From a virus: a stretch of DNA of 64,000 nucleotides. Below the pieces are notes generated by a model, which was given only the letters and a program-made list of their open reading frames with translations, searched no databases and was not told the origin of the DNA. The position numbers and the translations under genes were made by a program. Where the stretch lies: positions 21,738-85,737 of the IMG/VR virus record IMGVR_UViG_3300023192_002962; one strand, 5' to 3'. Below are positions 3,032 to 18,068 of this stretch, piece after piece. How positions within the stretch are numbered: the first letter of the stretch is position 1; each line of letters begins with the position of its first letter.

Positions 3032-5695
3032 ATGGCAACCCCAAAAACAACAAGACAAATTCTAGACGGTAACTTAACCCGTGCTGTACCGAGTGGGGTC
3101 TTTAATAGACGAATTCTCGTATTGGGAACATCAAAAGATGGTCCAATGTATACTCCGGTAAGTGTATCGTCTGCAGATGATGCTGCTCAAAATTTTGGAC
3201 CTTTTGGTTCTGGATCATTGACTAGGGGCATCAAAGAAGCATTTGATGGACAGATTGGTTTCTCCAAGTCTCCCGATGTATGGGGTATGAGAGTTGGTGG
3301 AATTAAAGCTAAAAGAGCATCAGGAGACTTAGATGACGCTCTAACTAATGCAGTTTTAAAAATTGAAGCTATAAATGAAGGTGATATGTATAATGATGTC
3401 AGTGTAAAATTCCAAGAAGGAAACTGCATCATATCAAATCCTAAAACAGGATTATCATCTTCCTATTCAGTAGATTTTGAGGACTGGAGTAATCCAGATG
3501 TTCAAGTGCATACATTAGACGAATTAGCAGCCAATATAGCAGCAGATTCAAATTTAAACGGTATTATATCTGCAATTGTTTATGATTATAGTGTGAATTT
3601 TGAAGTTCAATTAGATTCTACATCTGCCGCAGTAACTAACGCAGAAGCAGGAGAAACTAAAATAAATCTTGGCTTATTAGTGGATGGCGATGTTGTAGAC
3701 GGAAACTTATACCTCTCAGCTAATGCCAACGGCAATACTGCTTGGAACGGCGCCGCCGCTTTGGGCGAAGAACAGAACCCTATAAGAGAGATTACATCAG
3801 TTTATAGTATTAATGCTTCAGATAATATTGCATGCCTTAAAGGCAATTCGGCTGTTAAAGTAAGTGAAGGTTCAGTCGCAAAAGGAAAAGCAGATGCATT
3901 TAACTCTATTCTTAGAAACAATCTTTCAGCAAATGGTTTATTAGATAATGGAGCCACTTCTGAAGGTTATTGGAGAGTTAGAGGAGCTCAAGCGGTATTT
4001 TTAGATAACGACTTAGCTGCTATTGGAACTGAAATAACATCAATAGTAGAAGACGATGTAATTAGATTAAAACTTAATGTTGGAGCCACTTGTGTTTATG
4101 ATGGCTCTGCTGCAGGAAGCACAGGAACTGGTCAGTTAACATGGGTAGATGGTACAAAGAATATAAAAGTAACTATTGTTAATAAGAGCGATAATGAGCA
4201 ACACTCTTTTTATTTTGCAGGCGCTACAGGTGCAGGCGGAATATTTGCGGGTGGAACCACAGGAAACGGTAATATTGAGGTAGAATATACTGGTGCATCT
4301 GGAACAACAACATCAGGGTTTGTTACTCTGTCTACACATGAAGCTGATTTAATGCTTGGCTCTGGTCCATTTGAAGCTTATTTGGACTTTGATACAGAGC
4401 TTGTAGAGCTGGAGGGTAAAGAGGTACTATCAGCTGCAACTGAAGATACCCAGTATTTTGTAAGAGGAAATGAAATAGTATTTGGAGCGGCCCAGACTCA
4501 TGAGTTAGCATTCAAGTATGCTCAAGTAACTTACTATGACGAGGGTACTACCCTTGTTGTAAACGACGGACAGGCAGGAAAATTAACATTGACAGGTTCA
4601 TGTGGTCCAGGTTATGCATGTGGTGCGTTAACTGGAGCAGATGCTATTTTTGGTTTTTCTTATACATACTATCCAGGAAGCCCTACTACAGCTACAGTTG
4701 CTTTAACAGGTGGTGTTGATGGAACTAATCTTACAAGCTCAGATCTATATAACGATTTAGATGAAGCTTACACTCACCTAAATCAAGATTTCTTTGATAT
4801 ATTTACTGTGATGGGTGCTAGATTTGATACTTCAAAATCAGATTATGATTCTGTAACAGGAGTTCCTGTTATCATGAATGCTGGATTTGCAGATCAAATG
4901 AGAATATTTTTGAATAGTTTCAATGGTGAACTAATAGGAGTTATGGGTTTTGAACCTCTACAAGGTACAGGAGTAGGTGGCCGAATCCTAGCATCTGATG
5001 TTTCCAAAAGAGTTGATTATATGACAACCCCTAATATTGTGGGAGATCCTTTACGAGCAGCTAATATTCTTAATGGATTTCACCAACCATTTATGTTTGC
5101 AGTGGAAGCCGAGGTTATTATGAACTATAGAGGAAATCTTTATGGAACTGATGCAGCTGCGGTAACTAGTGGCTTACTTGCTGCAATTCCTACAGAAGAA
5201 GCAATCTATAGATTTAATCTTCCTGGAGCGCAAGGTTTAGTATGGAGATATGATTCTGTTGATGCCTCATCTGGTAAAGAACAGATTGATATATTGTCTG
5301 ATTCACGTTTACCGGTAGGAATAGTAAGTGGTACAAATATTAAGTTATCTGAGTCTAGGTCAATGGGTAGATCTGGATCAGATTTTGAGAATATAATGAC
5401 TGTTCTTATTCTGCAAGAAGTTTTACAAATATGTAGAGATGTAGCTAGGGATTATATAGGAAAGGTAAGTAGTGCACAACTGCTTCAAGCTTTCCAGAGT
5501 CAACTTGATAGAACTATAGGCGATACCATGGTGCCACGAGCTTTAAGAGGATTTAAGGCTCCAGTAGAAATGACACCAGGTGAAAGAGTAGTAGGTAAGT
5601 TAACTATTCCTCTGACCCTTAGTCCTCAGTTTGAACTTCGTGATGTACATTACATAGTTCAGCTAACAGCTGATGAAATTACTGCTTCAGCATAG
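3032..5695 (+). CDS. Tail sheath protein with large internal insertion
   Basis: N-terminal ILVLGTSKDGPMYTPVSVSSADDAAQNFG, central ALTGGVDG and C-terminal ENIMTVLILQEV...VGKVSS...LTIPLTLSPQFELRDVHYIVQL are sheath hallmarks. It has a GGGAG SD and is followed by the tube gene. Confidence 0.92.
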   Translation: MATPKTTRQILDGNLTRAVPSGVFNRRILVLGTSKDGPMYTPVSVSSADDAAQNFGPFGSGSLTRGIKEAFDGQIGFSKSPDVWGMRVGGIKAKRASGDLDDALTNAVLKIEAINEGDMYNDVSVKFQEGNCIISNPKTGLSSSYSVDFEDWSNPDVQVHTLDELAANIAADSNLNGIISAIVYDYSVNFEVQLDSTSAAVTNAEAGETKINLGLLVDGDVVDGNLYLSANANGNTAWNGAAALGEEQNPIREITSVYSINASDNIACLKGNSAVKVSEGSVAKGKADAFNSILRNNLSANGLLDNGATSEGYWRVRGAQAVFLDNDLAAIGTEITSIVEDDVIRLKLNVGATCVYDGSAAGSTGTGQLTWVDGTKNIKVTIVNKSDNEQHSFYFAGATGAGGIFAGGTTGNGNIEVEYTGASGTTTSGFVTLSTHEADLMLGSGPFEAYLDFDTELVELEGKEVLSAATEDTQYFVRGNEIVFGAAQTHELAFKYAQVTYYDEGTTLVVNDGQAGKLTLTGSCGPGYACGALTGADAIFGFSYTYYPGSPTTATVALTGGVDGTNLTSSDLYNDLDEAYTHLNQDFFDIFTVMGARFDTSKSDYDSVTGVPVIMNAGFADQMRIFLNSFNGELIGVMGFEPLQGTGVGGRILASDVSKRVDYMTTPNIVGDPLRAANILNGFHQPFMFAVEAEVIMNYRGNLYGTDAAAVTSGLLAAIPTEEAIYRFNLPGAQGLVWRYDSVDASSGKEQIDILSDSRLPVGIVSGTNIKLSESRSMGRSGSDFENIMTVLILQEVLQICRDVARDYIGKVSSAQLLQAFQSQLDRTIGDTMVPRALRGFKAPVEMTPGERVVGKLTIPLTLSPQFELRDVHYIVQLTADEITASA

Positions 5696-5723
5696 ATAGA
5701 CTAATAATCTAATATATAAAATT

Positions 5724-5755
5724 AAAGGGGTCAGTTTTGGCCCCTTTTCTATTTT
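5724..5755 (+). terminator. Intrinsic terminator after the sheath gene
   Basis: Stem AAAGGGGTCA / TGGCCCCTTT (one G-U pair) with loop GTTT, followed by TCTATTTTT. Confidence 0.75.
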
Positions 5756-5833
5756 TATATGACATATCTTTATTGTAACAAAGTACTAAGATTACCAGGA
5801 GTAACTCCCTAACTTTATTTAGGAGATAGTTCA

Positions 5834-6439
5834 ATGCCTTTTCAAGCAAACGAAACTGATTCAGGATTAATTTCTACTTTTTCAGGTTCAGATATTAAAT
5901 GTGTTTTTGGTAATATTGAAATAGGAAACCTTCAAGGTATATCCTGGTCAACCAATCGGGAAGTTCGTCCTATATTTGTGTGCGGCGATCCTAATGCCCT
6001 TTCTTATTCTAAGAATAAACGAGGACATGCAGGTTCAATCGTACTTACAGTATTTGATAGAGCTGCCTTGAGGGATATTCAAGACGTTGCACGCGTTTAT
6101 CGAAAAGATCAAGGGTTCGTTCCCGGAACATCAGCTAGAATAGTAGAGGCTCAAAATCCATTTGAGGCTAATTATAGACAGGCTGTATATGCGGACGAAA
6201 TTCCTCCATTTGATTCCACTTTGTATGGAATGAATGAGTTCGGAAGACAAATGGCTATGCGAATATATGATATGACAATAATCTCAGAAGGTGCCGGTGT
6301 ATCAATTGATGACGGTATCCAAGAGGCTCAGTTCACCTATGTAGCTCGGCATATAGATGCCTGGCGATCATTGACTAGCGAGAGCGGTGCACAAGATGTT
6401 ATTGATATATCAAATATATTTGATACTTTTGGCACCTAA
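5834..6439 (+). CDS. Tail tube protein
   Basis: TFSGSDIKCVFG..IGNLQGISWSTNREVRPIFVCG...SYSKNKRGHAGSIVLTVFDR...IPPFD..L...NEFG...GVSIDD....QFTYVAR is a typical large-myovirus tube pattern. It follows the sheath and has a strong AGGAG SD. Confidence 0.88.
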   Translation: MPFQANETDSGLISTFSGSDIKCVFGNIEIGNLQGISWSTNREVRPIFVCGDPNALSYSKNKRGHAGSIVLTVFDRAALRDIQDVARVYRKDQGFVPGTSARIVEAQNPFEANYRQAVYADEIPPFDSTLYGMNEFGRQMAMRIYDMTIISEGAGVSIDDGIQEAQFTYVARHIDAWRSLTSESGAQDVIDISNIFDTFGT

Positions 6440-6471: not shown

Positions 6472-7851
6472 GTGGCGGATACACGAGACATTAGAAGGGA
6501 CGGATTATTCTCCACCAGCTATTTACCGGATAATTTAGGATCGGGTAAACATACCGGTAGGATCGACCCAGAAACTAATGTTGCTCACCCAGTATCCCCT
6601 AATACTAAGGTTGCTTATTCAGGGGCAGATATATTTGCCTTTATAACTTCCTATGGTATTAACATAGCCCAGAATAGCCCTCTCATACCCCTTAAAAATC
6701 TTCTTGCTATGAGTTATTCTGTTCATAGAGAAAAAATGCCAGTCAGAAGACTAGGCTCCGAGGTGGCCCACGATTACACTCTAGGAACCAAGACTATAGC
6801 AGGCTCATTAGTATTACTTAATTTTGATAGAACAGCTTTATCTGAACTTATACTAGGTAGTGATATATATGGAGACAGTACTATTGTATCTACTTATGAC
6901 GATATTCCACCTTTTGATATAACTCTTATGTTTCAAGAGGAGATACAAGGGAGCTATGGAACCACATTTAGTAAAGAAAAAACAGCAGGTAATAATAGAG
7001 TCTCTCATGGAGAAAATGTACAGTATTCTGTTCTTAAAATAAATGGAATAAGACTTGTGGATGAAGGAATGGTTGTAGGAACTGATGAAGCATATTTAGA
7101 AACTACGTTTCAGTATGTTGCTGAGAGTGTTGAGCCCTTAGATCCTGTAGTTATAAATACTAGAAATATTCAGTTAGCTGGACAAATTTTGGACGCAGAC
7201 CAATTGGGAACGGTAGACGGTATATGGTATAAAGGAAAGGATAAATTTACATATGTTATAGAGGAACTCCCACCTATTGCAGATCTTCCCAGAATAAATC
7301 CACATGATGGTATACAACGAGGCGGGCTTAATCTGCTTACAGCGACTGATGATCTGGCATTAATAACATCTGGAGCACCAGCTTCTTGGATAAATATGCC
7401 AGAGCTTCCAATTGTTCCCATAGTATTTAACCTTGCAGATAACACAAGTCAGTTTGATTGGAAAAACGGAGGGATAGATCTTAGTTCATTTGGATCTGTT
7501 TTAACCCAGGGTGCTACCTATGGCTGGGAAGGATCAGCTTCTGGGAAATGGCCCATTAAGCCTATGGATCATCATTATATAGGTAAGGTTGTTTTCCCAG
7601 TAACACCTGACGAAGCTCAAGAATTGTTTGATTCGGGAAATGGAAGTCTAGTAGACGAAAAGTTAATTTTTATACCAAGAACAGTCGATACCCAGGATTC
7701 ATCTAAAGATGCTGAGAGTCGAGCTGAACAAAAGAATAATACTCTAGATATGTGTAGAACTTACTTTGCAAGTAAATGTTTAGCAGCGTTCGACGCAACG
7801 GGTAAAATATTTAGTCATTGTGTTGATCCTGATCGAATAGTGGATACATAA
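6472..7851 (+). CDS. Tube-fold baseplate/tube-initiator protein with a ~230-aa C-terminal extension
   Basis: YSGADI...LLAMSYSVHREKMPVRRLG...GTKTIAGSLVLLNFDR...IPPFDITL aligns by eye with the tube protein. GTG start with GAGGT SD. Confidence 0.78.
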   Translation: MADTRDIRRDGLFSTSYLPDNLGSGKHTGRIDPETNVAHPVSPNTKVAYSGADIFAFITSYGINIAQNSPLIPLKNLLAMSYSVHREKMPVRRLGSEVAHDYTLGTKTIAGSLVLLNFDRTALSELILGSDIYGDSTIVSTYDDIPPFDITLMFQEEIQGSYGTTFSKEKTAGNNRVSHGENVQYSVLKINGIRLVDEGMVVGTDEAYLETTFQYVAESVEPLDPVVINTRNIQLAGQILDADQLGTVDGIWYKGKDKFTYVIEELPPIADLPRINPHDGIQRGGLNLLTATDDLALITSGAPASWINMPELPIVPIVFNLADNTSQFDWKNGGIDLSSFGSVLTQGATYGWEGSASGKWPIKPMDHHYIGKVVFPVTPDEAQELFDSGNGSLVDEKLIFIPRTVDTQDSSKDAESRAEQKNNTLDMCRTYFASKCLAAFDATGKIFSHCVDPDRIVDT

Positions 7852-7852
7852 A

Positions 7853-8575
7853 ATGCCTGCCAATGACTATTCTATTCAGCCTACGTCTGGTTCATATGTA
7901 AGTGGACTAGAAGCTGCTGTGTATATTACATCTAGTGATCCTACTATTCATCAAAGTATTACTAACCGTAAACTTGATATAATTACTTTGGAATTTACTG
8001 AGACACAAGAAAAACTGCCAATTTATGGCTATAAGTCAGAAGAGTGGGATACGGTGCTTAGAGGGGAAAAGCTAGTACAAGGTACTTTTTCTTTAAATAT
8101 GAAATCTGCTCTTCAATTGACAAAGAACCTTGGTGGAACTGTATACTCTAGAGTTCAAGATTCTATAACTAATTTACCTCTGGCTAGACATGCTGATGCT
8201 AAGGGTTTTGATTATTGGTATGGCTCTGAAAGCACAGAGTACACTGATCTTTTTGGAAACTTAGTTTTACGAGATAGACCTGTGTTTACACAACGAAAAC
8301 AAATACCAAAAATATCATTTGATATTAAACTAGTATATTCATCAATAAAAATGAAATTGTTTTCTATGGATTTTTCCAATCCCGATGAAGAGGACATAGT
8401 AAATAAGTACATGCCTTTTCTTTATAGTAAATCTATAACAATTAAAAATGTTATGGTGAATTCTATTCAACAGTCTATTGCTCCCGATGGGGCACCAATT
8501 GGTGAATTTTATTCCTTTATAGGCAAGAATGTAATTGAAAAAAGTGAAACTCCTAAGGTTATAAAAAGGAAGTAG
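7853..8575 (+). CDS. Tube-fold baseplate protein
   Basis: YVSGLEAAVYI...TLEFTETQEKLPIYGYKSEEWDTVLRGEKLVQGTFSLN repeats the tube signature. Confidence 0.7.
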   Translation: MPANDYSIQPTSGSYVSGLEAAVYITSSDPTIHQSITNRKLDIITLEFTETQEKLPIYGYKSEEWDTVLRGEKLVQGTFSLNMKSALQLTKNLGGTVYSRVQDSITNLPLARHADAKGFDYWYGSESTEYTDLFGNLVLRDRPVFTQRKQIPKISFDIKLVYSSIKMKLFSMDFSNPDEEDIVNKYMPFLYSKSITIKNVMVNSIQQSIAPDGAPIGEFYSFIGKNVIEKSETPKVIKRK

Positions 8576-8577
8576 AT

Positions 8578-9042
8578 ATGTATTTTTCAGGCAACGACGT
8601 AACTCTCTATATTAGTAAAGGAGGTGGTTTAAGTAAAGAGCTGTTAGATGCAGTTTCTGTGCAATTTTCTATAAATCATCCCACATCACCAGTATACTCT
8701 CATGGAGATAGACAATTTAAAACACAAATGATAGGAACAAAATTAATTCACGGATCAATTTCTTTAAATTACAAAGAAGGAACTAATCTATTAGCTTTGA
8801 CAGATAAAGGGTATTCTGAATTGTATATAATGTATGCAAAAACTGCTTATGACAATACAGTAATTAAGGGTAAAAGGTATAAAGGGGCGGGGGAGTATAC
8901 AGCAGAAACTTCCTATTGCTTAAAAGGAATAGAGATTACCGCAAGGCAACATGTTGTTACACCAAATGCTGAGAATATAGTAAACAACTACCAATTTATA
9001 GCTAGATCTTTCATTGGAAATTTATTAGAAGAAACCATGTAA
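8578..9042 (+). CDS. Tube-fold baseplate protein
   Basis: YFSGNDVTLYI...SVQFSINHPTSPVYSHGDRQF..QMIGTKLIHGSISLNY...NNYQFIAR repeats the tube signature. Confidence 0.7.
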   Translation: MYFSGNDVTLYISKGGGLSKELLDAVSVQFSINHPTSPVYSHGDRQFKTQMIGTKLIHGSISLNYKEGTNLLALTDKGYSELYIMYAKTAYDNTVIKGKRYKGAGEYTAETSYCLKGIEITARQHVVTPNAENIVNNYQFIARSFIGNLLEETM

Positions 9043-9056
9043 TTTTAAAATAAACC

Positions 9057-9128
9057 TTGCATAGCTTAATCAAATATTCGTAAATTTACATACCATAGAA
9101 ATAGTTAATTAATTATATTAATTAGGAG
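9057..9128 (+). promoter_or_regulatory. Putative sigma70-like promoter, AT-only inverted repeat and SD upstream of the first chaperone
   Basis: TTGCAT (9057-9062), an 18-nt spacer, then TAAATT (9081-9086). Inverted repeat TAATTAAT-tat-ATTAATTA at 9106-9124. AGGAG at 9124-9128. This is one of the few sizeable intergenic gaps. Confidence 0.4.
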
Positions 9129-9136
9129 AAATTCAC

Positions 9137-9505
9137 ATGACAGAAAAAATAGAAGATATGATACCAGATTCATATCCACTTGGAACAGACGGACCTTCTC
9201 AAACAGAAGTAGATTTGTTAAAGAAGAAGTATGGTAAAGTTAGAGCATGCTTTACAGGAAGTAAGGTATATATAGTTAGAATGATGAGTAGATCAGAACA
9301 CATGGTTCTTCAGAATGAGATCTTTGAGAGAACCGAAGCTAATGATCCAGACTTAGATGTTGACTTTATGATTGCAAAAGATTTTACGATGTGGCCAAAG
9401 GATATTGATTGGGATAAAGAACCAGGAGGAGCAGTACCTGTACTGTCTCAAGAAGTTTCAAAATTGTCAGGATTTGTTAAGGATAAGGAAAGTATAGAAT
9501 TGTAA
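9137..9505 (+). CDS. Tail assembly chaperone (paralogue 1)
   Basis: 122 aa with LKKKYGKV...YIVRMMSRSE...PGGAVPVLSQEVSKLSGF, located between the tube genes and the tape-measure-like gene. Strong SD. Confidence 0.72.
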   Translation: MTEKIEDMIPDSYPLGTDGPSQTEVDLLKKKYGKVRACFTGSKVYIVRMMSRSEHMVLQNEIFERTEANDPDLDVDFMIAKDFTMWPKDIDWDKEPGGAVPVLSQEVSKLSGFVKDKESIEL

Positions 9506-9538
9506 ACATCACCCGTATAGTGTGTTTCTTCCTGGTAC

Positions 9539-9573
9539 AAAAAAGGGTATGATTTTAATTCATACCCTTTTTT
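9539..9573. terminator. Perfect 14-bp hairpin, probable bidirectional intrinsic terminator
   Basis: AAAAAAGGGTATGA (9539-9552), loop TTTTAAT, TCATACCCTTTTTT (9560-9573). Confidence 0.85.
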
Positions 9574-9591
9574 ATTAGACATACCTTTTAT

Positions 9592-10200
9592 ATGGATATA
9601 TCAAAGAAAATAGCCGAATGGAAAGCCAAATATGGTTCAGTCTTTATAGTTTCTATTGAAGATAAGTCCATTTATTATAGAACATTAACTGCTTGGGAAA
9701 TCCAAAGTATAATTGATCTCACTAAACAAAACAAAGCTTCCTTAGATATAGAAGAGTCTACGTGTTTATTTGGAGTATTAGCTCCTAGTCCTTTACCTAC
9801 CTTTAGTAAACCTGGCAGTATTTCCAGTTTAAGCGAAGAGATTTGGAATAAATCAACTCTGTCAGCTGATATTATGGCAAAAACTATAAAGGATAGTAGA
9901 GAGTGGAGTGAAAGTAGCGTAGACCAAAATTATAATTTAATTATAGCAAGTGTTATGTGTAAGCTAATGCCCTCGTTAGACTTAGCTCATCTCTTGGAGT
10001 TACCTACCACTAAACTTGTAAGGCTGGGAGCAATAGTAGAAAAGATAACAGGAGAACAATTCTTAGAAGGAGAATTACTTAGTAAACAGGGAACTAAGAA
10101 AAGCATGGGTTCTGATAGAGTTACTAATGAAATGGCAGATAAAACAGCAAATCTGTTGGCGAATGCTCTTAAACAGCAAAGAACAAAGGCTAAGATATAA
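9592..10200 (+). CDS. Tail assembly chaperone (paralogue 2)
   Basis: IAEWKAKYGSVF...IYYRTLTAWE...PGSISSLSEEIWNKS parallels ORF 9137. Its stop overlaps the start of the next giant gene (TAATG). No clear SD. Confidence 0.68.
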   Translation: MDISKKIAEWKAKYGSVFIVSIEDKSIYYRTLTAWEIQSIIDLTKQNKASLDIEESTCLFGVLAPSPLPTFSKPGSISSLSEEIWNKSTLSADIMAKTIKDSREWSESSVDQNYNLIIASVMCKLMPSLDLAHLLELPTTKLVRLGAIVEKITGEQFLEGELLSKQGTKKSMGSDRVTNEMADKTANLLANALKQQRTKAKI

Positions 10201-13200
10201 TGGCAACTGACGATTATATTGATGATTTAGTGAATCCCGAGGAACAGGGTGAAAGTACAATAGCAAAAGGCATAGGCCAAGCGGCTACTACTTTAGGTAT
10301 GTTTATGGGGATCCATATGGCAGCCATGTTCATAGTCACTAAAGGTAAAATGAGAGCTTTTTCTGCTCTACAAAAATCAACCATCCCACGTATAAGAGCT
10401 GCAGCAACCCGTGCTGCTACAACAACTCATTCTTTAACTGATTTCATTGCAACAGTAGGTCAAGGAAAAGGAACTGTTTCCCGTTTAGCGCAAAGTGTTT
10501 ATGCGTCAAGTACTTCTAAAACAGCAGAAACACTAAGGGCAGGATGGAAAGATATATCAGCCTATGAAAAAATTGGAAAATTTAGAGAGCTTTCGAGGGC
10601 AAATAAAACTACTATTGTTGAACGATCTGCTGGTAAATATTTGAGGGAAGCAGCGGTATTTATGCCGTCATTCTATATAGCTGAGCATAATATAGGTATA
10701 TTACATGATGGCCCAGAGAAGGAAGCAAAACCAGCCTGGTATAATTTACCAGGGCATGCTATAGGATTTGCAAAGTTTGTACCTCATATGTTGGCAATAG
10801 ACTTAGGATTTAGAGGAGTATTGCATGGTGCAAAAATAGCAGCATCGCCTCTTAGGGGAATGTTAGATCCTTTAGAACATTCTATAGCAAATTCCCCCAT
10901 AGCTGACGCTGCTGTAGATGCATACAAATGGGCTGAACGTGGAGCATACAGAGAAAAGCAGATAGCAGGAATGAAGATAGGAGATATTATTGATCACATG
11001 GGTGTTGCAAAAGATGCCTTTGTTAAGTCTTTAAAAAGTCCTACTCGTACAAAAATGTGGAGACGAGATAAAGAAGTATTTTCTGGATATGAGAGAACTA
11101 CAAATTCATTGTATAAAGTATATACTCATCATAGACAGCACATAAAAGTTCTAAGAAGCCAGCTTTACACAAAGAAATTAGAGCGTTATGATAAACGTAT
11201 ACAAAAAGCAGGTCTGACCACTGAAGAATCCTTTAGACATAATTTTTCTGATTTTGTTAAATTTATGGACGAGCCTGGGATTTCTGGAAGAACAGACTAT
11301 CAAGAGGCACTTTATAAAAGTAATAGAGCTGCCAGTGGGAATGAATTACTCGGTAAACAATATTATAATGAGAATGCAAAGACTCCATTTATTGCTAGGA
11401 TTCTTGGGTTAAAAAGAGCTAAAGCATCTGATTATAAAGCTGGTGAAAAAACACTTGGAAAAATTTACGATACTGCTAGTAAAGATAAATGGAATGAAGG
11501 CACAGATACTATTTTAGGAAAAAGGAAAAAAGATTTTGTTAGTAAACTTCTATCTAATAATACCTTTATTCAGGAAAGATCAGGACAATCTGTAAATTTA
11601 GACTATTTAGATCCTAGATATTGGGCTACAAAAGGTCTAAATAGTTTTCCTACGATTCTGGGATACGGCGTAATTGATTTGTTTCCCTTTAAGGTTATGA
11701 CAAGGAGACCTGGGGATAGAGTAATGCTTGCTTCAGGACAAGTTCCATTAACTCCTTCCCAGCAAACGGACGCTTTTGGACGAAAATTGTTCCAGAAAGA
11801 ATCACGAGCAGGCGAACTACACGTAACTTATAAAAATGTATATAATTTCTCTTCAGAATTCAATGATGGAAGTCGAGGTCTAATCATGAGAAGAGCTGGA
11901 GATAAACATTATAGTTTATGGGACTTTCAAGGATCTCAAGGAGCGAATGTTGCTGATGGTTGGGTTCAGGTAGGTAAAAATATAAAATTAGCTTTAAGAA
12001 GTGATTCTCCTAAAGGACAAAGAGTGCATTACGAAGGTTTAGTTTCTGCTACAGATAAGAATACTAGGATGCCGGGAGAATTTAGTTCTAATCCATTTAT
12101 GAGATTTATGCAGGAGAAGCTTAGTCTTTTGGATAATAAAGGCTCTTTTCCTAGTATATTTAGAAACTTACAAATGGTAATGCCCGAAGGGATGCAAAAT
12201 TTCTTTAATGTTAGTGATGCAGTAAGGGGTTCTAGATCTAGAAAAATTTTAGAAGATCTAAAAAAATTATCACAGCATAAGGTTGACGATATTGTACAGT
12301 CTAGTCATAAGCAAATGCAAATGTTAGACATTGTTAATCGTACTAAGGCGTTATCAGAAAGAGTAAGGAGAAGAAGTTTTGACAGTACGTTGTCGGATGA
12401 CTATTTTTTTAATGATATTATTAAGTTCTTAGATACGAATATGCCTGGTGATTTTTTAAAGGGTAAGAAAATACGTAGCGTAGATGATATATTTGATCTA
12501 GCTTCACACATTAGAAGAAATGTTGGAGAGAGTAATCTTAATATGTCTGAACGAGAATTGCTAAGAGTGGATGCTTTACTTAACGAAGCTCGTTTATCCA
12601 AAGACGTACTGAGAAGAGAAGTACATCCTGAGTTACCCGTAGAAAAACTTAAAAGATTTATATATGATTATTCAGTAAACTTCTCACGTACTAATAACTT
12701 AGGAAAACACGGTATAGAGGAAAGGATGCTTAACAAGGCGATTAAGGCCTTTGAAAATCAGCGTATAACAAAACAACAATTAACAGATCTAGAAGTTAGT
12801 ATATTTTCTACTGACTTTAGAGAGGTAATTAGAGATACAGATTTTTCTAAGGGTCGGCTACTCGAAAAAATAGGGAAAGATGATGTTTCAAAAGTAATAG
12901 ATAGTATAAAAAAGGGTTTAGTAAATAAATTCTCAGGAGCAGCAGATGGTCGTTCTGTGATAGACACAGCTCTTGCTAACACTGGTATGTTTGAAACAGC
13001 TTACTCAAAAGCGATAGATACCGGAATTCCTGATTTAATTGATACATTACAGCTCACCATGGATAGTAACCCGTGGGTTGCCTACCCTACTGGTTTTAAA
13101 GAAGTGCTTGGACTAGGATTACGATGGGGTATATCTACGGTTGATAAACTTGTAAGTTCGTTTGGTTTAGGATGGGATAAAGGAAGATTTAGTACACCAG

Positions 13201-16200
13201 GAGAAGTGATTGGATTACAAGGTAGAAGACTTGCCACATTTAGTGCAGCTTTATTGGGGTATAGTGCCGTAGACAGCGTTACAGATGCCTCTGGCGCATT
13301 TGATGGGACATTTTTAGATGAAGGACTAACAGTTGGATTAGCCGATCAGGCAGTACGTTTACGAATGCTAGCTGCTAAAACTTATGACGTACTTGGAGTA
13401 GATAATGCGGCTAGGTATATGGAAGGTCTTATGCCTGGTTCTATGAATGTGTTACCAGGGCTTGCTATTGGCGGCCTGGCCGGAGGCATGGTGGGCTCCG
13501 GGATTCCAGGAGCTATTGTTGGAGCCATGGTTAATGCCTATTTAGGGCCTCAATTAAAAGAAGGTCCTTTAAGTTTTTTATCTATAGCGCCCCCACTTGC
13601 TCCATTTGTTTCAGATTTAACAAAAAGCTATGATGAAGTTCAAGATATATATGAAGGAAAAGAATTACTTGCTAGAAGAAAAGGAGCTGGATGGACATTA
13701 GGACAAACTCCTATAGAAGGTGGCCGCATAGAAGGATGGGAGCTTCATTGGTACCCAAAGCTAAAATCCCAATATAAAGCAACTCCAGTTCTTTATGGCT
13801 CTAAGGTAGAACAATTCTTAGCAAAAGATGTACCCTTATTAGATTTTTCTATAATGGATATAATCGATCCTCAATATTTAACATACAAGCATTATGAAAA
13901 TAGACCATACTTAATACCGGATACCCCCTTTACAGAAGTTCCAATTATTGGACCAGTACTGGGTGCTACTCTAGGTAGGGCTTATAATTTAGTGCATCCT
14001 TTAGGTCAGGTGGATCCAATGCATGTGCAAGAGGCTGCATCGGCCTTTATGAAAGGAAACAGTTATGATTGGAAAGGTGGTGCACAGGACACGTTTGGTC
14101 CTCAATACCGAGGACTAGGGCCTGCAGGTGTTGGTTTAGCGGACAGGCAACCAGGACAACCTAATATAGGTAATATAGTTCTTTCTCCTTATGATATTAA
14201 ACCATTGTTGGCAGAATCAGTATATAAAGGATGGATAGAGTGGATGGGGTTACCTGGATTTATAACATCAGCAGTAGCCTGGGGAGGGGATGAACCTTTT
14301 ACTAATGTTCCTATTGCCCCTGCTGCTACTGATATGGATTCTTTTGCTAGATCTTATTGGGATTCTAATGCTGGAGATATGGCGTTAACTAATGAATTGT
14401 TTAGAAGATTTGTTCCTAGACCTAGAACTAGTTATGAAACTGTAGATCTTATACATAATGCTATGCCTGGTTGGATACCTGAACATTTACGGACTGGAGA
14501 TCCCTATTGTTTACTACCGGATACTTTAGTAGAAACTACTAATGGTTTAACTAGGTCTGAAGATATTACAGATGGTATGCTTGTTAAAACTATGTATGGA
14601 AGATTTTATCCAGTAAGTAATACTGTAAGTAGGCCTGTTGAGGAGGAAATATATTGTATAACTTTGCCTGGATTAAAAGATTTTGAACTAAAAGTAACAG
14701 GGGAGCATCCTTTTTATATAAAGCAAGGCGATGAGTATAAGTGGGTTTTAGCTAAAAATCTTACAACAGAGCATAGAGTAACTTATCCTTTGTTACAAAT
14801 ACAATTAAATAATATAATAGACACTAATATTGAAATAGATGTTGAAGCTAAAATGGCTAAGCTCCTAGGTTTATTAGCTAGATGGACTAAATGGGGAAGT
14901 ACCTTAGAGTATAGAGATGAAATCCCCGATAACATAACTAAAGAAATTGATAGTCTTGTAAAGCTATTGTCAATAGATTTAGAATTAATTAAGACAATAG
15001 TTTATGAACATCAGAGTGATGGAATGGCTGTTCCTTTAGTAACTTCAGATTTAGCTATAGTTTTAAATTATCTAGAACCGTTTAGAGTAAAATCTAGTAC
15101 TAATGAAATAAAATATAGATTTCATTCTCAAAAAGCTGCTTATAATACGTGGACTGGTCTGTTACAAAATAAAATATTTTCGTTTATTAATAATGATACT
15201 TTGACTATACGGAATCAATTTGCTGCAGAGATTGCATATTTATTGGATATAGATATTAAGGTTACTGAATTTGAAAAGCCCTATTGTTCATTTAGCTTAG
15301 TTGATAGTAAAGTAGGCCCATTAGCAATCTTGTCTATAGAGAATATACGTAAAGAATATTATGAAGGCAATGTACACACTATAGAAGTATCAGATGATGT
15401 TACCTATTGTCTTCCGGGAGCTATTGTTCATAATAGTAAAATTACCCATGGAGAATTATATTTACCAGGGGAAGGATATGAAGCAGCTTTTAATCCAGAT
15501 CTAACATTCCCTGTAGGAATGTCCCGACTCGGACGTTCGGCTTATGACCAAGCACTGGGCATGATAGGACTGTCTAATATCGCAGAAGACCAAGAGGAGA
15601 TTTTAGAAAAGGGTACGGCTATTCACAAAATGGTACAGAATCAGCTAATGATGATGGGCGCTACTACTAGAATTGAAGCGTTAGTTACAGATCCTAGCGC
15701 TAATCTCAGATCTTATGTGGATGTAATGTTAAAAGATCCTAGAGGTAACGAAATGCCTCTTGAAATTAAGAGTATATCTGCCAAAGGCTTTGAAAGATTA
15801 GATAGACCAAAATATTCGCATAAAATTCAGTTAAATTCTTATCTAGCAGTTATGGGAGTTAACAGGGGTAAATTTTTATATGTATCTCGAGAAGATCCAA
15901 CAAAAACAAAGCAATTTAGTTTACAATTTGATCCTGATATGTGGGAACAAACATTAGGTAAGTTACGTGAAGCCAGATATCTTGCTCAAGAGTTCTTATC
16001 TCAAGGTTACGGTAGGGCTGCTGAAGGATACTCATATCTGGATAGAGCTAGAGTTTTATTAAACTCAGCTCCTTATTCAAAAGAGTACCGTGAAACATTC
16101 TCATTGCTTGAAGAACAAAAAGTTAGTGGACATTTGTCAGAACAAGAATCAGCACAACTGAGTAATTTAGAAGGTTATCACAAGGCAATGATGAGAAAGT

Positions 16201-18068
16201 ATGAGATGTATCCTAGAAGGTTTACATTAGATAAACTTTTAGATCCGGATGCGGAGTATCAAAATCTATCCTCCAATGAATATATAGAACCAGCAGATAC
16301 TTATTCATTAGCTGAAAGAATAGCTGGTGCTTCATGGGAGTATGCTACCCATCTTAGATCTCCTATACATTCAAAATTATTTGGAAGATACTCTCCAGAG
16401 GAACAGTATGATAGATTTGTAATGTATGGTGTTCCTTTTCAATCATGGGCAAGACCTTATGATACTTTTTTGAAACCCTATGCTAGGGGACTAAGGTCCG
16501 TTACTGATCCATTGCAAGGAGCTATGTCTTTTGCAACGGGAGGATTAATATTTGGAGGAGGCCCTGGGGCCTTAGCTGGAGCAGCAATAGGTGCTGCTTA
16601 TGGGTCGATGCACGGAATGTATAGAGCAATTACTGGTGACACGTATCGCCCACAGAACTTTAAAGATAAGGTAGAGATGCAAGAGTACTTTGATACAATT
16701 GAGTATATGAAAGCTGAGCAAATGTATATGGCTACAGGAAATCCAGATTATAGACGACAAATGGTAGGGACAATGAGAGGTTGGATTGAAACAAGTGGTG
16801 GTCAGTTTATGACAGTACCAAATAGTGGAGGTATACAGGGCCATTATGGATATGATCCTGGAAGTTTGTTTGGAACCTCATCAGGACCAGCAGCCAGAGC
16901 TGCAAGGTTAATGAATAATCCATATGCCCAAGGAATTGGGACTGATCAAGGGTTCGGATCACCGTGGAAGGGATTGGCTAATGTTTATCGTCGATTATTT
17001 AAAAGTGAAAAAACAATAAAAATATTTAGAGGAGTTGATAAGTGGCATAGAGGACAAATGGTACAACAGGGTAACTTTGTCGGAGGAGGAAAATATACTC
17101 AAAGTAGTCGTGCCCCTGCATCTCCGATGTATATACCTAAATCTGAAACAGCACTATATACTTCCGGTAGTGCTAAAGATGCAATGTCTTACGGAAGACG
17201 AGGCAGACGACCTGGAGCTCCTGAACCAACGTTGCTTGAATTTGCTGTTCCAGAAACATATGTTAGCAAAGCTGCAGTACAAATTAAAGGTCGTGATTTT
17301 AGTCATTATGTTTTTGACGAGGGCATACCTAAACGTTTTTTAAGGAGAGTCTATTCCCCAAAAACAAGCCCCCAGAGTAGAGCCTTAAAAAAAACACAGA
17401 ATCCAGCAGCTAAGAGTATAGGTGGAGACAAAGGTTTTGGATCTCCGTGGCAGGGAACAGATGACCAAGAAGCTCTTAACTATGATGCAAATATTAATGT
17501 ATTCAGCGGCTTCTCTGCTTTAGCTGCTTGGGATAGACCTTTTTGGACAGCATTCTTAGAGACTCCTGAAGATAAAAGAGATAGAATATTAGATCAGGTA
17601 GATACACGAATGGGTGATATGCTAAAAATTGCATGGGGCAGAGGTGAAGAAGTTGCAATGCCTTCAATGGATGTGTTTTTTAGTAATTATAAAAAACCGT
17701 CAGCATTAGAACCAATAATGGGACCTGATACTGATATATCTGATTATATTACCGTTACTGCCAACTCAAGCGGACTAGATGCTCATGATTTTGGTTTTGG
17801 ATGGAGAGATCAATTAAGACGAATTCAAGATTCTGCTAATGCGATTTTACCGATTAATATTCATGGAAAAGACACTCCTGCCTTTGAAGCATCGGCAGTG
17901 TCACAGGGGGACATAAGTACCGCTTTAACAAAAGTACTAACAAGGATGGGATATGAAGGAGCTAGAATACAAGTAAACTCTATGATGTCCGAAAGAGATG
18001 ATACCATTCTTAAACTTAATATAAGACGAGATTCAAGTATAGATATTATAAAGGCGTTATATGGCTAG
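10200..18068 (+). CDS. Giant tape-measure-like/ejection protein (2622-aa precursor) with intein, PD-(D/E)XK nuclease and ART-like domains
   Basis: Follows the chaperones. Mostly helical and basic, with Gly/Ala hydrophobic segments (LPGLAIGGLAGGMVGSGIPGAIVGAM; GAMSFATGGLIFGGGPGALAGAAIGAAYG). Embedded domains are listed separately. Confidence 0.75.
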   Translation: MATDDYIDDLVNPEEQGESTIAKGIGQAATTLGMFMGIHMAAMFIVTKGKMRAFSALQKSTIPRIRAAATRAATTTHSLTDFIATVGQGKGTVSRLAQSVYASSTSKTAETLRAGWKDISAYEKIGKFRELSRANKTTIVERSAGKYLREAAVFMPSFYIAEHNIGILHDGPEKEAKPAWYNLPGHAIGFAKFVPHMLAIDLGFRGVLHGAKIAASPLRGMLDPLEHSIANSPIADAAVDAYKWAERGAYREKQIAGMKIGDIIDHMGVAKDAFVKSLKSPTRTKMWRRDKEVFSGYERTTNSLYKVYTHHRQHIKVLRSQLYTKKLERYDKRIQKAGLTTEESFRHNFSDFVKFMDEPGISGRTDYQEALYKSNRAASGNELLGKQYYNENAKTPFIARILGLKRAKASDYKAGEKTLGKIYDTASKDKWNEGTDTILGKRKKDFVSKLLSNNTFIQERSGQSVNLDYLDPRYWATKGLNSFPTILGYGVIDLFPFKVMTRRPGDRVMLASGQVPLTPSQQTDAFGRKLFQKESRAGELHVTYKNVYNFSSEFNDGSRGLIMRRAGDKHYSLWDFQGSQGANVADGWVQVGKNIKLALRSDSPKGQRVHYEGLVSATDKNTRMPGEFSSNPFMRFMQEKLSLLDNKGSFPSIFRNLQMVMPEGMQNFFNVSDAVRGSRSRKILEDLKKLSQHKVDDIVQSSHKQMQMLDIVNRTKALSERVRRRSFDSTLSDDYFFNDIIKFLDTNMPGDFLKGKKIRSVDDIFDLASHIRRNVGESNLNMSERELLRVDALLNEARLSKDVLRREVHPELPVEKLKRFIYDYSVNFSRTNNLGKHGIEERMLNKAIKAFENQRITKQQLTDLEVSIFSTDFREVIRDTDFSKGRLLEKIGKDDVSKVIDSIKKGLVNKFSGAADGRSVIDTALANTGMFETAYSKAIDTGIPDLIDTLQLTMDSNPWVAYPTGFKEVLGLGLRWGISTVDKLVSSFGLGWDKGRFSTPGEVIGLQGRRLATFSAALLGYSAVDSVTDASGAFDGTFLDEGLTVGLADQAVRLRMLAAKTYDVLGVDNAARYMEGLMPGSMNVLPGLAIGGLAGGMVGSGIPGAIVGAMVNAYLGPQLKEGPLSFLSIAPPLAPFVSDLTKSYDEVQDIYEGKELLARRKGAGWTLGQTPIEGGRIEGWELHWYPKLKSQYKATPVLYGSKVEQFLAKDVPLLDFSIMDIIDPQYLTYKHYENRPYLIPDTPFTEVPIIGPVLGATLGRAYNLVHPLGQVDPMHVQEAASAFMKGNSYDWKGGAQDTFGPQYRGLGPAGVGLADRQPGQPNIGNIVLSPYDIKPLLAESVYKGWIEWMGLPGFITSAVAWGGDEPFTNVPIAPAATDMDSFARSYWDSNAGDMALTNELFRRFVPRPRTSYETVDLIHNAMPGWIPEHLRTGDPYCLLPDTLVETTNGLTRSEDITDGMLVKTMYGRFYPVSNTVSRPVEEEIYCITLPGLKDFELKVTGEHPFYIKQGDEYKWVLAKNLTTEHRVTYPLLQIQLNNIIDTNIEIDVEAKMAKLLGLLARWTKWGSTLEYRDEIPDNITKEIDSLVKLLSIDLELIKTIVYEHQSDGMAVPLVTSDLAIVLNYLEPFRVKSSTNEIKYRFHSQKAAYNTWTGLLQNKIFSFINNDTLTIRNQFAAEIAYLLDIDIKVTEFEKPYCSFSLVDSKVGPLAILSIENIRKEYYEGNVHTIEVSDDVTYCLPGAIVHNSKITHGELYLPGEGYEAAFNPDLTFPVGMSRLGRSAYDQALGMIGLSNIAEDQEEILEKGTAIHKMVQNQLMMMGATTRIEALVTDPSANLRSYVDVMLKDPRGNEMPLEIKSISAKGFERLDRPKYSHKIQLNSYLAVMGVNRGKFLYVSREDPTKTKQFSLQFDPDMWEQTLGKLREARYLAQEFLSQGYGRAAEGYSYLDRARVLLNSAPYSKEYRETFSLLEEQKVSGHLSEQESAQLSNLEGYHKAMMRKYEMYPRRFTLDKLLDPDAEYQNLSSNEYIEPADTYSLAERIAGASWEYATHLRSPIHSKLFGRYSPEEQYDRFVMYGVPFQSWARPYDTFLKPYARGLRSVTDPLQGAMSFATGGLIFGGGPGALAGAAIGAAYGSMHGMYRAITGDTYRPQNFKDKVEMQEYFDTIEYMKAEQMYMATGNPDYRRQMVGTMRGWIETSGGQFMTVPNSGGIQGHYGYDPGSLFGTSSGPAARAARLMNNPYAQGIGTDQGFGSPWKGLANVYRRLFKSEKTIKIFRGVDKWHRGQMVQQGNFVGGGKYTQSSRAPASPMYIPKSETALYTSGSAKDAMSYGRRGRRPGAPEPTLLEFAVPETYVSKAAVQIKGRDFSHYVFDEGIPKRFLRRVYSPKTSPQSRALKKTQNPAAKSIGGDKGFGSPWQGTDDQEALNYDANINVFSGFSALAAWDRPFWTAFLETPEDKRDRILDQVDTRMGDMLKIAWGRGEEVAMPSMDVFFSNYKKPSALEPIMGPDTDISDYITVTANSSGLDAHDFGFGWRDQLRRIQDSANAILPINIHGKDTPAFEASAVSQGDISTALTKVLTRMGYEGARIQVNSMMSERDDTILKLNIRRDSSIDIIKALYG
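14508..15434 (+). mobile_element. Class-1 intein (309 aa, residues 1437-1745) with degenerate LAGLIDADG core
   Basis: Starts CLLPDTLVETTNG after extein GDPY. Block B is VTGEHPFY. Ends VHTIEVSDDVTYCLPGAIVHN followed by +1 Ser. The endonuclease-like blocks (MAKLLGLLARW; AAYNTWTGLLQ) lack the catalytic DG. Confidence 0.93.
15600..15960 (+). other. RecB/Cas4-like PD-(D/E)XK nuclease domain inside the 2622-aa protein
   Basis: GTAIH (G1805-H1809), YVD (D1841), LEIKS (E1855, K1857), HKIQLNSY (Q1877-x3-Y1881), GKFLYVSRED. The motif set is complete and in order. Confidence 0.85.
17016..17354 (+). other. ADP-ribosyltransferase-fold-like domain inside the 2622-aa protein
   Basis: IFRG (R2277), LYTSGSAKDAMSYG (S2322), TLLEFAVP and YVFDEGIPKRFLRRVY follow the R-S strand order of pertussis/pierisin-type ARTs. 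The usual catalytic Glu position reads S-H-Y. Confidence 0.5.

Follow-up and report, generated by a model that had tools for sequence, protein, structure and literature searches.

The first minutes of an infection are decided by effectors that the virion itself delivers, and to our knowledge very few of these have been characterised beyond T4 Alt, the virion RNA polymerase (vRNAP) of N4 and the Dar proteins of phage P1. The locus described here raises the question of what kind of domain a virus has placed between two copies of a short motif inside one of its giant proteins, and what the motif does there. The window, i.e., the whole stretch of DNA that was analysed, comprises 64,000 nucleotides (positions 21,738 to 85,737 of IMG/VR record IMGVR_UViG_3300023192_002962) and is part of an 86-kb viral contig with a CheckV completeness estimate of about 46%; the gene in question, P0002, encodes 2622 residues. 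A preliminary description, made from the letters alone, had proposed that the motif copies enclose a domain resembling ADP-ribosyltransferases (ARTs) and mark a swappable effector slot. On balance we favour the view that P0002 is a polyvalent-type ejection protein whose motif-delimited variable slot holds a basic ART-fold domain delivered by the virion. The features on which this view rests are as follows, in window coordinates.

10200..18068, plus strand: host gene P0002 (2622 aa, frame 3; open reading frame (ORF) list and translation)
16914..16973, plus strand: motif copy 1, NNPYAQGIGTDQGFGSPWKG (aa 2239-2258), the upstream, extra copy
16974..17396, plus strand: insert (aa 2259-2399), with an N-terminal helix, a predicted ART-fold core and a basic tail
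17013..17354, plus strand: predicted ART-fold core (aa 2272-2385; AlphaFold2 model me0f645b40107)
17397..17456, plus strand: motif copy 2, QNPAAKSIGGDKGFGSPWQG (aa 2400-2419), the resident copy, found in every family member examined
17457..18065, plus strand: conserved C-terminal domain (aa 2420-2622), common to gp145 of Bacillus phage 0305phi8-36 (alignments)

A repeated motif brackets the insert

The two decapeptides from which the preliminary description started, DQGFGSPWKG (16944-16973) and DKGFGSPWQG (17427-17456), lie exactly at these coordinates in frame 3 of the plus strand, 483 nt (161 aa) apart, and no other match to GFGS.W occurs in any of the six reading frames of the window. The repeat extends beyond the decapeptides first noted. 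NNPYAQGIGTDQGFGSPWKG and QNPAAKSIGGDKGFGSPWQG are identical at 13 of 20 residues, and because the best 20-residue self-match in 100 shuffles of P0002 had 8-10 identities and never more than 10, the repeat is beyond chance; the ten-residue stretch alone (8/10 identical) was equalled in one of 30 shuffles and is thus of marginal significance. At the DNA level, the copies share 43 identical columns among 77 aligned, with many synonymous differences; the repeat is thus old and held at the protein level, and is no recent duplication.

Across the family the motif has the consensus NPxAxxIGxDxGFGSPWxG, and its G, S, P and G show no variation across the 34 aligned members, the strongest conservation within the C-terminal 400 residues. 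An AlphaFold2 (AF2) model of aa 2225-2622, built with 34 relatives, reached a mean predicted local distance difference test score (pLDDT) of 58, which is too poor for the packing of the motif to be read from it, and is confident only for aa 2434-2494. Both copies have a pLDDT below 50 and lie between folded parts, weak evidence given the poor overall model; they are probably flexible or unstructured. The motif is missing from 0305phi8-36 gp145, though the C-terminal domain is shared. The motif may act as a processing site that frees modules, as a docking element or as a junction favouring in-frame gain and loss.

In one relative of 894 aa (P0037), a helical WDRPF-like subdomain stands before the motif and not after it, indicating that the motif can shift its place relative to its neighbours. 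Motif-like matches in a 1421-aa protein (P0035) were considered and set aside: they comprise 15 repeats resembling tetratricopeptide repeats (TPRs; ..IEIDQNFA.PWNGLGNLF..), which score 1-8 bits each against motif copy 1 and the helix that follows it. This is probably a chance likeness of a short motif, though the likeness to the turn between TPR helices is striking.

The insert is predicted to adopt an ART fold

Between the motifs, the preliminary description had seen a basic domain of about 115 residues with an ART-like order of strands (IFRG, LYTSGS..A..SY, LLEF, GIP..FLRRVY). These blocks proved to be the conserved blocks of a real domain family, the domain is indeed basic (pI 10.1-10.5, net charge +11 to +18), and an ART fold is the clear reading of its predicted structure, on which fold comparison and language-model features agree. 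The AF2 model of the core has a pLDDT of 83 and a predicted template modelling score of 0.72, with the strand order β1-β2-helix-β3-β4-β5-β6. When it was compared with 48,161 chains by VIA-align, all of the best 50 rows belonged to the ART superfamily, with Z from 8.8 to 4.6. The best was the nicotinamide adenine dinucleotide (NAD) lobe of KptA (9ld3_A; Z 8.8, 88 aligned residues, 3.1 Å), and further matches were VPA0770/RES (7.8 and 6.6), TreX (7.7), ParT (7.1), diphtheria toxin (6.4) and LT (6.4). The same 50 rows also include TccC3, PltA, DarT, PARP1, Scabin, pertussis toxin and MbcT, as well as a chain of the cyanophage A4 pre-ejectosome.

Foldseek returned RES, Tpt1, cholera toxin and ParT at the top of its PDB matches (probability 0.9-1.0, E 4.6e-3 or weaker), Tpt1, Res, ParT and Chelt among Swiss-Prot models, and the same families from the AFDB clusters, likewise with probabilities of 0.9-1.0. 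Language-model (Atlas) features of the domain point to Tox-ART-HYD1 (0.91) and also to Exotoxin A, PARP, TreTu and Arr. When PDB sequences were searched with a profile, cholix toxin came up as a weak match (E 0.29), with an alignment that covers the strand carrying Y-T-S, the helix after it and the LLEF.VP strand (β2-helix-β3).

A family of small proteins with an atypical active site

An exhaustive HMMER search with aa 2150-2622 separated two kinds of relatives, large proteins that match the flanks and small proteins that match the insert only. The latter are numerous, with many proteins of 119-300 aa matching only query positions ~107-258, which correspond to the insert. The domain family has about 48 stand-alone homologues of 119-543 aa (representatives at 50% identity), which came from marine metagenomes wherever the source was checked and have been seen so far only in phage-like contexts. 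Genomic context was followed at two loci, both on marine phage-like contigs. P0031 is encoded on a Tara contig of 43 kb, where a P22-type portal gene is the second gene downstream and an SU10-type capsid gene is nearby, and P0050 is immediately followed by an SU10-type adaptor gene; a neighbourhood of portal and capsid type is taken as a sign of virion packaging (PMC9503650). Two members have a larger architecture: P0087 (543 aa) is a tandem double ART domain, the only protein found in word-indexed searches for longer proteins with this domain, and P0112 (502 aa) carries the domain behind a region with an HExxH motif (THEKWH).

Among 50 aligned domains, five residues are invariant (the RG of [YF]RG, a W, the P of the VP strand and a G), and 49 of the 50 members have a pI above 9. 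The alignments and profile searches define an ART-fold family without a Pfam-A or PHROG match and with an atypical active site. The candidate site residues in P0002 are listed below.

17028-17030, plus strand: R2277, candidate site residue at the end of β1
17160-17165, plus strand: T2321/S2322, candidate site residues in β2
17238-17240, plus strand: E2347, candidate site residue in LLEF.VP (β3)
17304-17306, plus strand: H2369, the canonical Glu position at the start of β5

R2277, within [YF]RG, is invariant in all 50 members and stands at the end of model strand 18-25, where an Arg or His that contacts NAD is expected. Position 2322 is T or S in 45 of the 50, in a strand (65-68) followed by a helix (71-79), as in the β2 Ser/Thr and helix of ART enzymes. 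E2347 is Glu in 41/50 (82%) and Lys in 7/50. The catalytic Glu of the (E/Q)xE motif that opens β5 in the R-S-E clade (the cholera toxin, C3, VIP2 and T4 Alt type) is replaced by His2369, as the preliminary description had suspected, when the register is set by strand order and an alignment to cholera toxin. This position, three residues before the conserved F2372 (the F..G[LI]P block), is E in 9, D in 6 and another residue in 35 of 50 members, and a clear QxE or ExE occurs in this region in a few of them. A loss of activity is not established by the replacement because another Glu, E2347, exists and is widely conserved.

Relatives of the scaffold carry unrelated domains in the same slot

The scaffold family consists of tail-module proteins of 2,000-4,400 aa, and its members support the swappable effector slot that the preliminary description had proposed. 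Some have a single motif and an empty site, P0004 and P0005 among them, and others hold unrelated domains between two or three copies; both copy number and insert content vary, and the pattern that would speak for a fixed architecture, an invariant sequence between two always-present motifs, was not seen. In every complete member, 201-229 residues separate the last motif copy from the C-terminus. Many carry one copy only, sometimes in the form GH.SPW.G or GFRSPY.G. In the nearest relatives, P0004 and P0005, the motif is single and the insert absent, as it also is from most of the clade. Upstream of copy 1, P0002 can be aligned with what precedes the single motif in P0004 and P0005, and downstream of copy 2 with what follows that motif, an arrangement that an insertion would leave if it carried one motif along or duplicated it. 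The insertion may have taken place by recombination at the motif.

In members with two or three copies, the motif copy number equals the number of inserts plus one, and the segments between motifs form nine groups without BLAST similarity between groups. The contents of the slot include the following.

P0002 and P0006: predicted ART fold, the P0006 insert being homologous to that of P0002
P0007 and P0017: a 108-aa segment (unknown domain)
P0015 (insert 1) and P0027 (insert 2): a segment of ~500 aa with nucleotidyltransferase matches (phrog_1614, E 6e-6 for P0015)
P0015 (insert 2, HERAH), P0024 (HERMH) and L010 (HERSH): HExxH segments
P0064: a kinase-like segment (Atlas features 0.93, a lead only)
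P0027 (insert 1): a segment without family assignment
Distant clade of 10 members: a short low-complexity linker of 65-128 aa

The richest slot is that of P0015 (L017, IMGVR_UViG_3300005077_000002, 188.7 kb, matches 6753-9655), which has three motif copies and two large inserts; insert 1 combines its nucleotidyltransferase matches with a G[GS]...D.D-like signature. For P0015, Atlas features scored ART-PolyVal at 0.82, a lead only, and phmmer searches of its two inserts against PDB sequences gave nothing meaningful. The P0007 insert and the first half of P0015 insert 1 were considered as decayed or H-Y-E-type ARTs, a view that hhalign against the ART profile did not support (probability below 1%). 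A scan of viral contigs with the P0002 protein sequence found no relative. A degenerate DNA pattern for the motif found eight viral contigs, including that of L010 (IMGVR_UViG_3300023440_000001, 4730-6250, minus strand), a 2657-aa member in which two motif copies 239 aa apart enclose the HERSH domain.

A maximum-likelihood tree built from the scaffold sequence on either side of the slot pairs P0002 with the empty P0004 and P0005 as its sister group (support 100/99) and P0006 with P0007 and P0017, the carriers of another insert (100/100), with empty-site lineages between the two ART carriers. In the domain tree, the embedded ARTs of P0002 and P0006 group together with moderate support (98/54).

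P0002 lies in a contractile-tail module

All large ORFs in the window are on the plus strand. P0002 is flanked by tail-sheath-like and baseplate-wedge-like genes, and head-protein-like matches also occur in the region; together these matches place P0002 in what appears to be a contractile-tail structural module. Two more giant ORFs, of 2939 and 5143 aa, come after P0002. The start of the 2939-aa ORF overlaps the P0002 stop codon, beginning 8 nt before (window 18061-18068), and these two overlapping giant genes are probably translationally coupled.

In the 'phages' collection of deposited genomes, megablast of the whole P0002 gene gave no match, and the sole match to the C-terminal 523 aa in tblastn was the C-terminus of gp145 of Bacillus phage 0305phi8-36, with 26% identity (E 4e-7) across the last ~225 residues. 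The gp145 gene has two tail chaperone genes on one side and gp146, the putative tape measure gene, on the other, with a baseplate hub gene next, and because the gene order in the window is the same, P0002 can be regarded as the counterpart of gp145. The 0305phi8-36 record annotates gp145 as a virion protein identified by mass spectrometry. The helical part of the shared C-terminal domain, aa 2434-2494, is modelled with a pLDDT of 78-95.

Upstream of the slot, P0002 contains further segments of interest.

Window 13449-13532, plus strand: Gly/Ala-rich hydrophobic segment 1 (aa 1084-1111)
Window 14508-15434, plus strand: intein-like segment (aa 1437-1745, 309 aa)
Window 15588-15989, plus strand: RecB/Cas4-like PD-(D/E)xK nuclease domain (aa 1797-1930; phrog_1706, E 8e-17; phrog_2506 exonuclease, E 3e-11)
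Window 16518-16598, plus strand: Gly/Ala-rich hydrophobic segment 2 (aa 2107-2133), ~105 residues upstream of motif copy 1

The nuclease domain is conserved in aligned homologues. The first residue of the intein-like segment is a Cys preceded by GDPY, and its last two are HN, with a Ser next; its matches to Pfam Intein_splicing and Hint_2 are weak and below threshold, and precomputed intein Pfam domains are present in several homologues. Both hydrophobic segments are reminiscent of the stretches with which tape measure and ejection proteins insert into membranes.

Weighing the explanations

Under the explanation that we favour, P0002 would be a giant multi-domain virion protein in the tail module of an uncultured marine contractile-tailed phage, with a slot ~370 residues from its C-terminus that is bounded by copies of a probably unstructured 20-residue motif. 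The ART-fold domain would be carried in the virion, enter the host with the DNA and, early in infection, modify some host macromolecule with the help of NAD+. Its strongly positive charge and the structures closest to it (KptA/Tpt1, RES and ParT) suggest that a target with phosphate groups, or a nucleic acid, is at least as likely as the classical protein arginine, and the chemistry would be non-canonical, the usual β5 Glu being His. The motif copies would act as module boundaries, with recombination between them or proteolysis at them allowing cassettes to be gained, lost or released in frame. A bolder version seems quite unlikely to us in its full form: that GFGSPW is a dedicated plug-in junction, serving both as a post-ejection processing site and as an in-frame recombination point, at which effector domains (ART, nucleotidyltransferase, zincin, kinase) are exchanged among marine jumbo phages and placed in a tail-lumen scaffold for delivery, the cassette here being a Glu-less ART that ADP-ribosylates a nucleic-acid or phosphate target and no protein side chain.

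Several observations weigh against the favoured explanation. Foldseek E values against PDB, AFDB and Swiss-Prot never fall below 3e-3, with TM scores of only ~0.42-0.45, and the VIA-align Z of 8.8 is near the level that, as the program warns, a model without a clear match can reach; since single scores are this weak, the ART call rests on the uniformity of the match lists and on the agreement of independent methods. The domain has no sequence match (E up to 1) to curated ART families, to Pfam, ART-PolyVal PF18760 included, or to PHROGs, and a Pfam and PHROG scan of the domain, its flanks and 50 relatives gave a single ART-family match, Scabin-like, in one of the 50 (E 0.091). The GC profile shows no break at the insert. 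The register of residue 2369 follows strand order and what we take to be its alignment to the ExE...GGIP of cholera toxin, without a residue-level superposition. The canonical Glu position varies from member to member (E or D in 15/50, His in P0002), and E2347 is Lys in seven members, including P0048, which has neither Glu, so the domain could be a binding module or a pseudo-enzyme. One ancient ART gain followed by about three losses and a replacement explains the two ART carriers as well as a transfer of the cassette between lineages does; under either history, the slot content has changed repeatedly, which was the core of the preliminary description. Lastly, we infer the virion location, delivery, enzymatic activity, target and motif role of P0002, the virion evidence being indirect, namely the annotation of its homologue gp145 as found in virions by mass spectrometry.

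The same observations leave room for three other explanations. The layout of two motifs may be an old internal duplication with a tolerant linker, into which domains arrived by random illegitimate recombination while the motif itself has a role in assembly, such as docking to the hub or tube. This is a possibility of some weight, if not the probable course of events: ten members have two motifs separated only by the low-complexity linker, the first copies across distant clades (PY.QG.G.D[MQ]GFGSPW.G[LI]) are more alike than each is to the last copy of its own protein, which suggests two anciently distinct copies, and a DNA identity of only ~70% across the 60 nt of the motif would serve homologous recombination poorly. 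However, an old duplication leaves unexplained the exact placement of at least six unrelated inserts between motif copies, and also why a motif stands between both inserts of three-motif proteins. The copies might instead be proteolytic sites of a polyprotein, cut at or near GFG/SPW by a phage or host protease or by the HExxH domain of relatives, such that the inter-motif and C-terminal domains are released separately at assembly or after ejection and each module needs its own site. We regard this as doubtful. It would suit the low pLDDT of both copies between folded parts, the four invariant motif residues in 34 members, the copy number of inserts plus one and the recurrence of HExxH domains in the slot; but the low pLDDT is weak evidence in a model with a mean of 58, a search of P0002 for an HExxH peptidase found none, and the motif fits no protease specificity known to us. 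Release of single domains by metallopeptidases has been proposed for polyvalent proteins (PMC5512222).

It is likewise rather unlikely that the ART-fold insert is catalytically dead and serves as a structural, NAD- or ADP-ribose-binding, or nucleic-acid-binding module of a tail-lumen protein, holding for instance the leading DNA end or host RNA. The His at the canonical Glu position, which varies across the family, and the strong basicity shared by 49 of 50 members would fit such a module, as would the best structural neighbour, the NAD lobe of KptA, an enzyme that acts on nucleic-acid phosphates. However, the conservation of the β1 Arg-Gly (50/50), the β2 Thr/Ser (45/50) and E2347 (41/50) exceeds the needs of a purely structural role, and ART enzymes without the classical Glu do exist, KptA and RES, which transfer to phosphate (PMC9503650).

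Whichever history is correct, the slot is a precise, motif-delimited place at which unrelated enzyme domains have been inserted, and would thus offer a natural map of what these phages inject. The motif provides a simple sequence handle with which further cargo domains may be harvested from metagenomes and, if it is a processing or exchange junction, it would represent a compact solution, found in nature, to the task of equipping a contractile delivery machine with foreign domains.

Comparison with known systems

The virion of phage T4 contains Alt, an ADP-ribosyltransferase that enters the host along with the DNA (PMC9503650). The P0002 domain resembles it as an ART-fold domain that is probably tied to the virion and is presumed to act at the very start of infection. 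Alt belongs to the R-S-E enzymes (Alt/VIP2 family, with the catalytic motif ExE) and is a separate head-internal protein; unlike Alt, the P0002 domain is a minimal fold of ~115 aa with His at the Glu position, lies inside a tail-module giant and has no Alt-type sequence match. Its best structural neighbours, KptA/Tpt1, RES and ParT (Z 8.8, 7.8/6.6 and 7.1), are minimal ART folds like itself. In contrast to whole KptA, only the C-lobe (chain residues 91-180, the NAD lobe) is matched, and only ~13 residues with one helix precede β1 in the insert, where KptA/Tpt1 has its N-terminal RNA-binding lobe. That lobe carries most of the catalytic residues of KptA. The order Arg ... Thr/Ser ... Glu in the P0002 domain differs from what we take to be the signature of the RES family and, in contrast to the RES and ParT toxins, no antitoxin partner was seen beside the ART domain.

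The preliminary description likened the slot to the cassettes of polymorphic toxins. As in the Rhs and CDI systems, a short conserved motif marks a boundary for the exchange of unrelated effector domains, ART folds included, and this part of the comparison stands. It extends no further than analogy: the slot is internal and bracketed on both sides, and its carrier would be a phage virion protein instead of a secreted bacterial toxin. The slot is followed by the conserved 203-aa domain and then by the 2939-aa ORF as the next gene; no immunity gene was seen, the contig holds no second ART or orphan cassette, and the window no further motif copy.

Tape measure proteins (TMPs) of mycobacteriophages contain enzymatic motifs, reportedly described by Piuri and Hatfull in 2006. 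In the contractile injection systems of Streptomyces, Sle1 stands for tape-measure-related effectors whose functional domain varies and can be swapped experimentally (PMC13277306). P0002 would share with Sle1 and TMP proteins a tail-lumen or tape-measure-related scaffold from which exchangeable functional domains are delivered to a target cell. The parallel is functional, as the scaffolds are not detectably homologous, the embedded domains differ and the abstract of PMC13277306 mentions no repeated delimiting motif.

The closest concept is that of the polyvalent proteins of phages and conjugative elements, whose domains include ARTs, kinases and metallopeptidases (Iyer, Burroughs, Anand, de Souza and Aravind 2017; PMC5512222), and virion-packaged ARTs and virion-delivered polyvalent effectors have already been described (PMC5512222, PMC9503650 and PMC7824862). 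Like these proteins, P0002 is very large and multi-domain, lies among late or structural genes and is predicted to be delivered with the DNA. The repertoire is also alike, with a predicted ART fold and a RecB/Cas4-like nuclease in P0002 and HExxH, nucleotidyltransferase and kinase-like domains in relatives; P0002 thus combines at least two effector-type domains (the phrog_1706 nuclease and the ART fold) with a late or structural context of sheath- and baseplate-wedge-like neighbours. In contrast to polyvalent proteins, P0002 matches no Pfam PolyVal family, ART-PolyVal PF18760 included, and its scaffold is a gp145-type tail-module protein and not a MuF, portal-linked or N4 vRNAP-type head protein. 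Its variable domains occupy one slot bounded by a repeated linear motif, a feature that text searches of PMC5512222 did not reveal. Overall, P0002 fits the concept of a polyvalent virion-delivered effector, to which it adds a tail-module scaffold, an ART family without the Glu of R-S-E enzymes and a motif-delimited slot.

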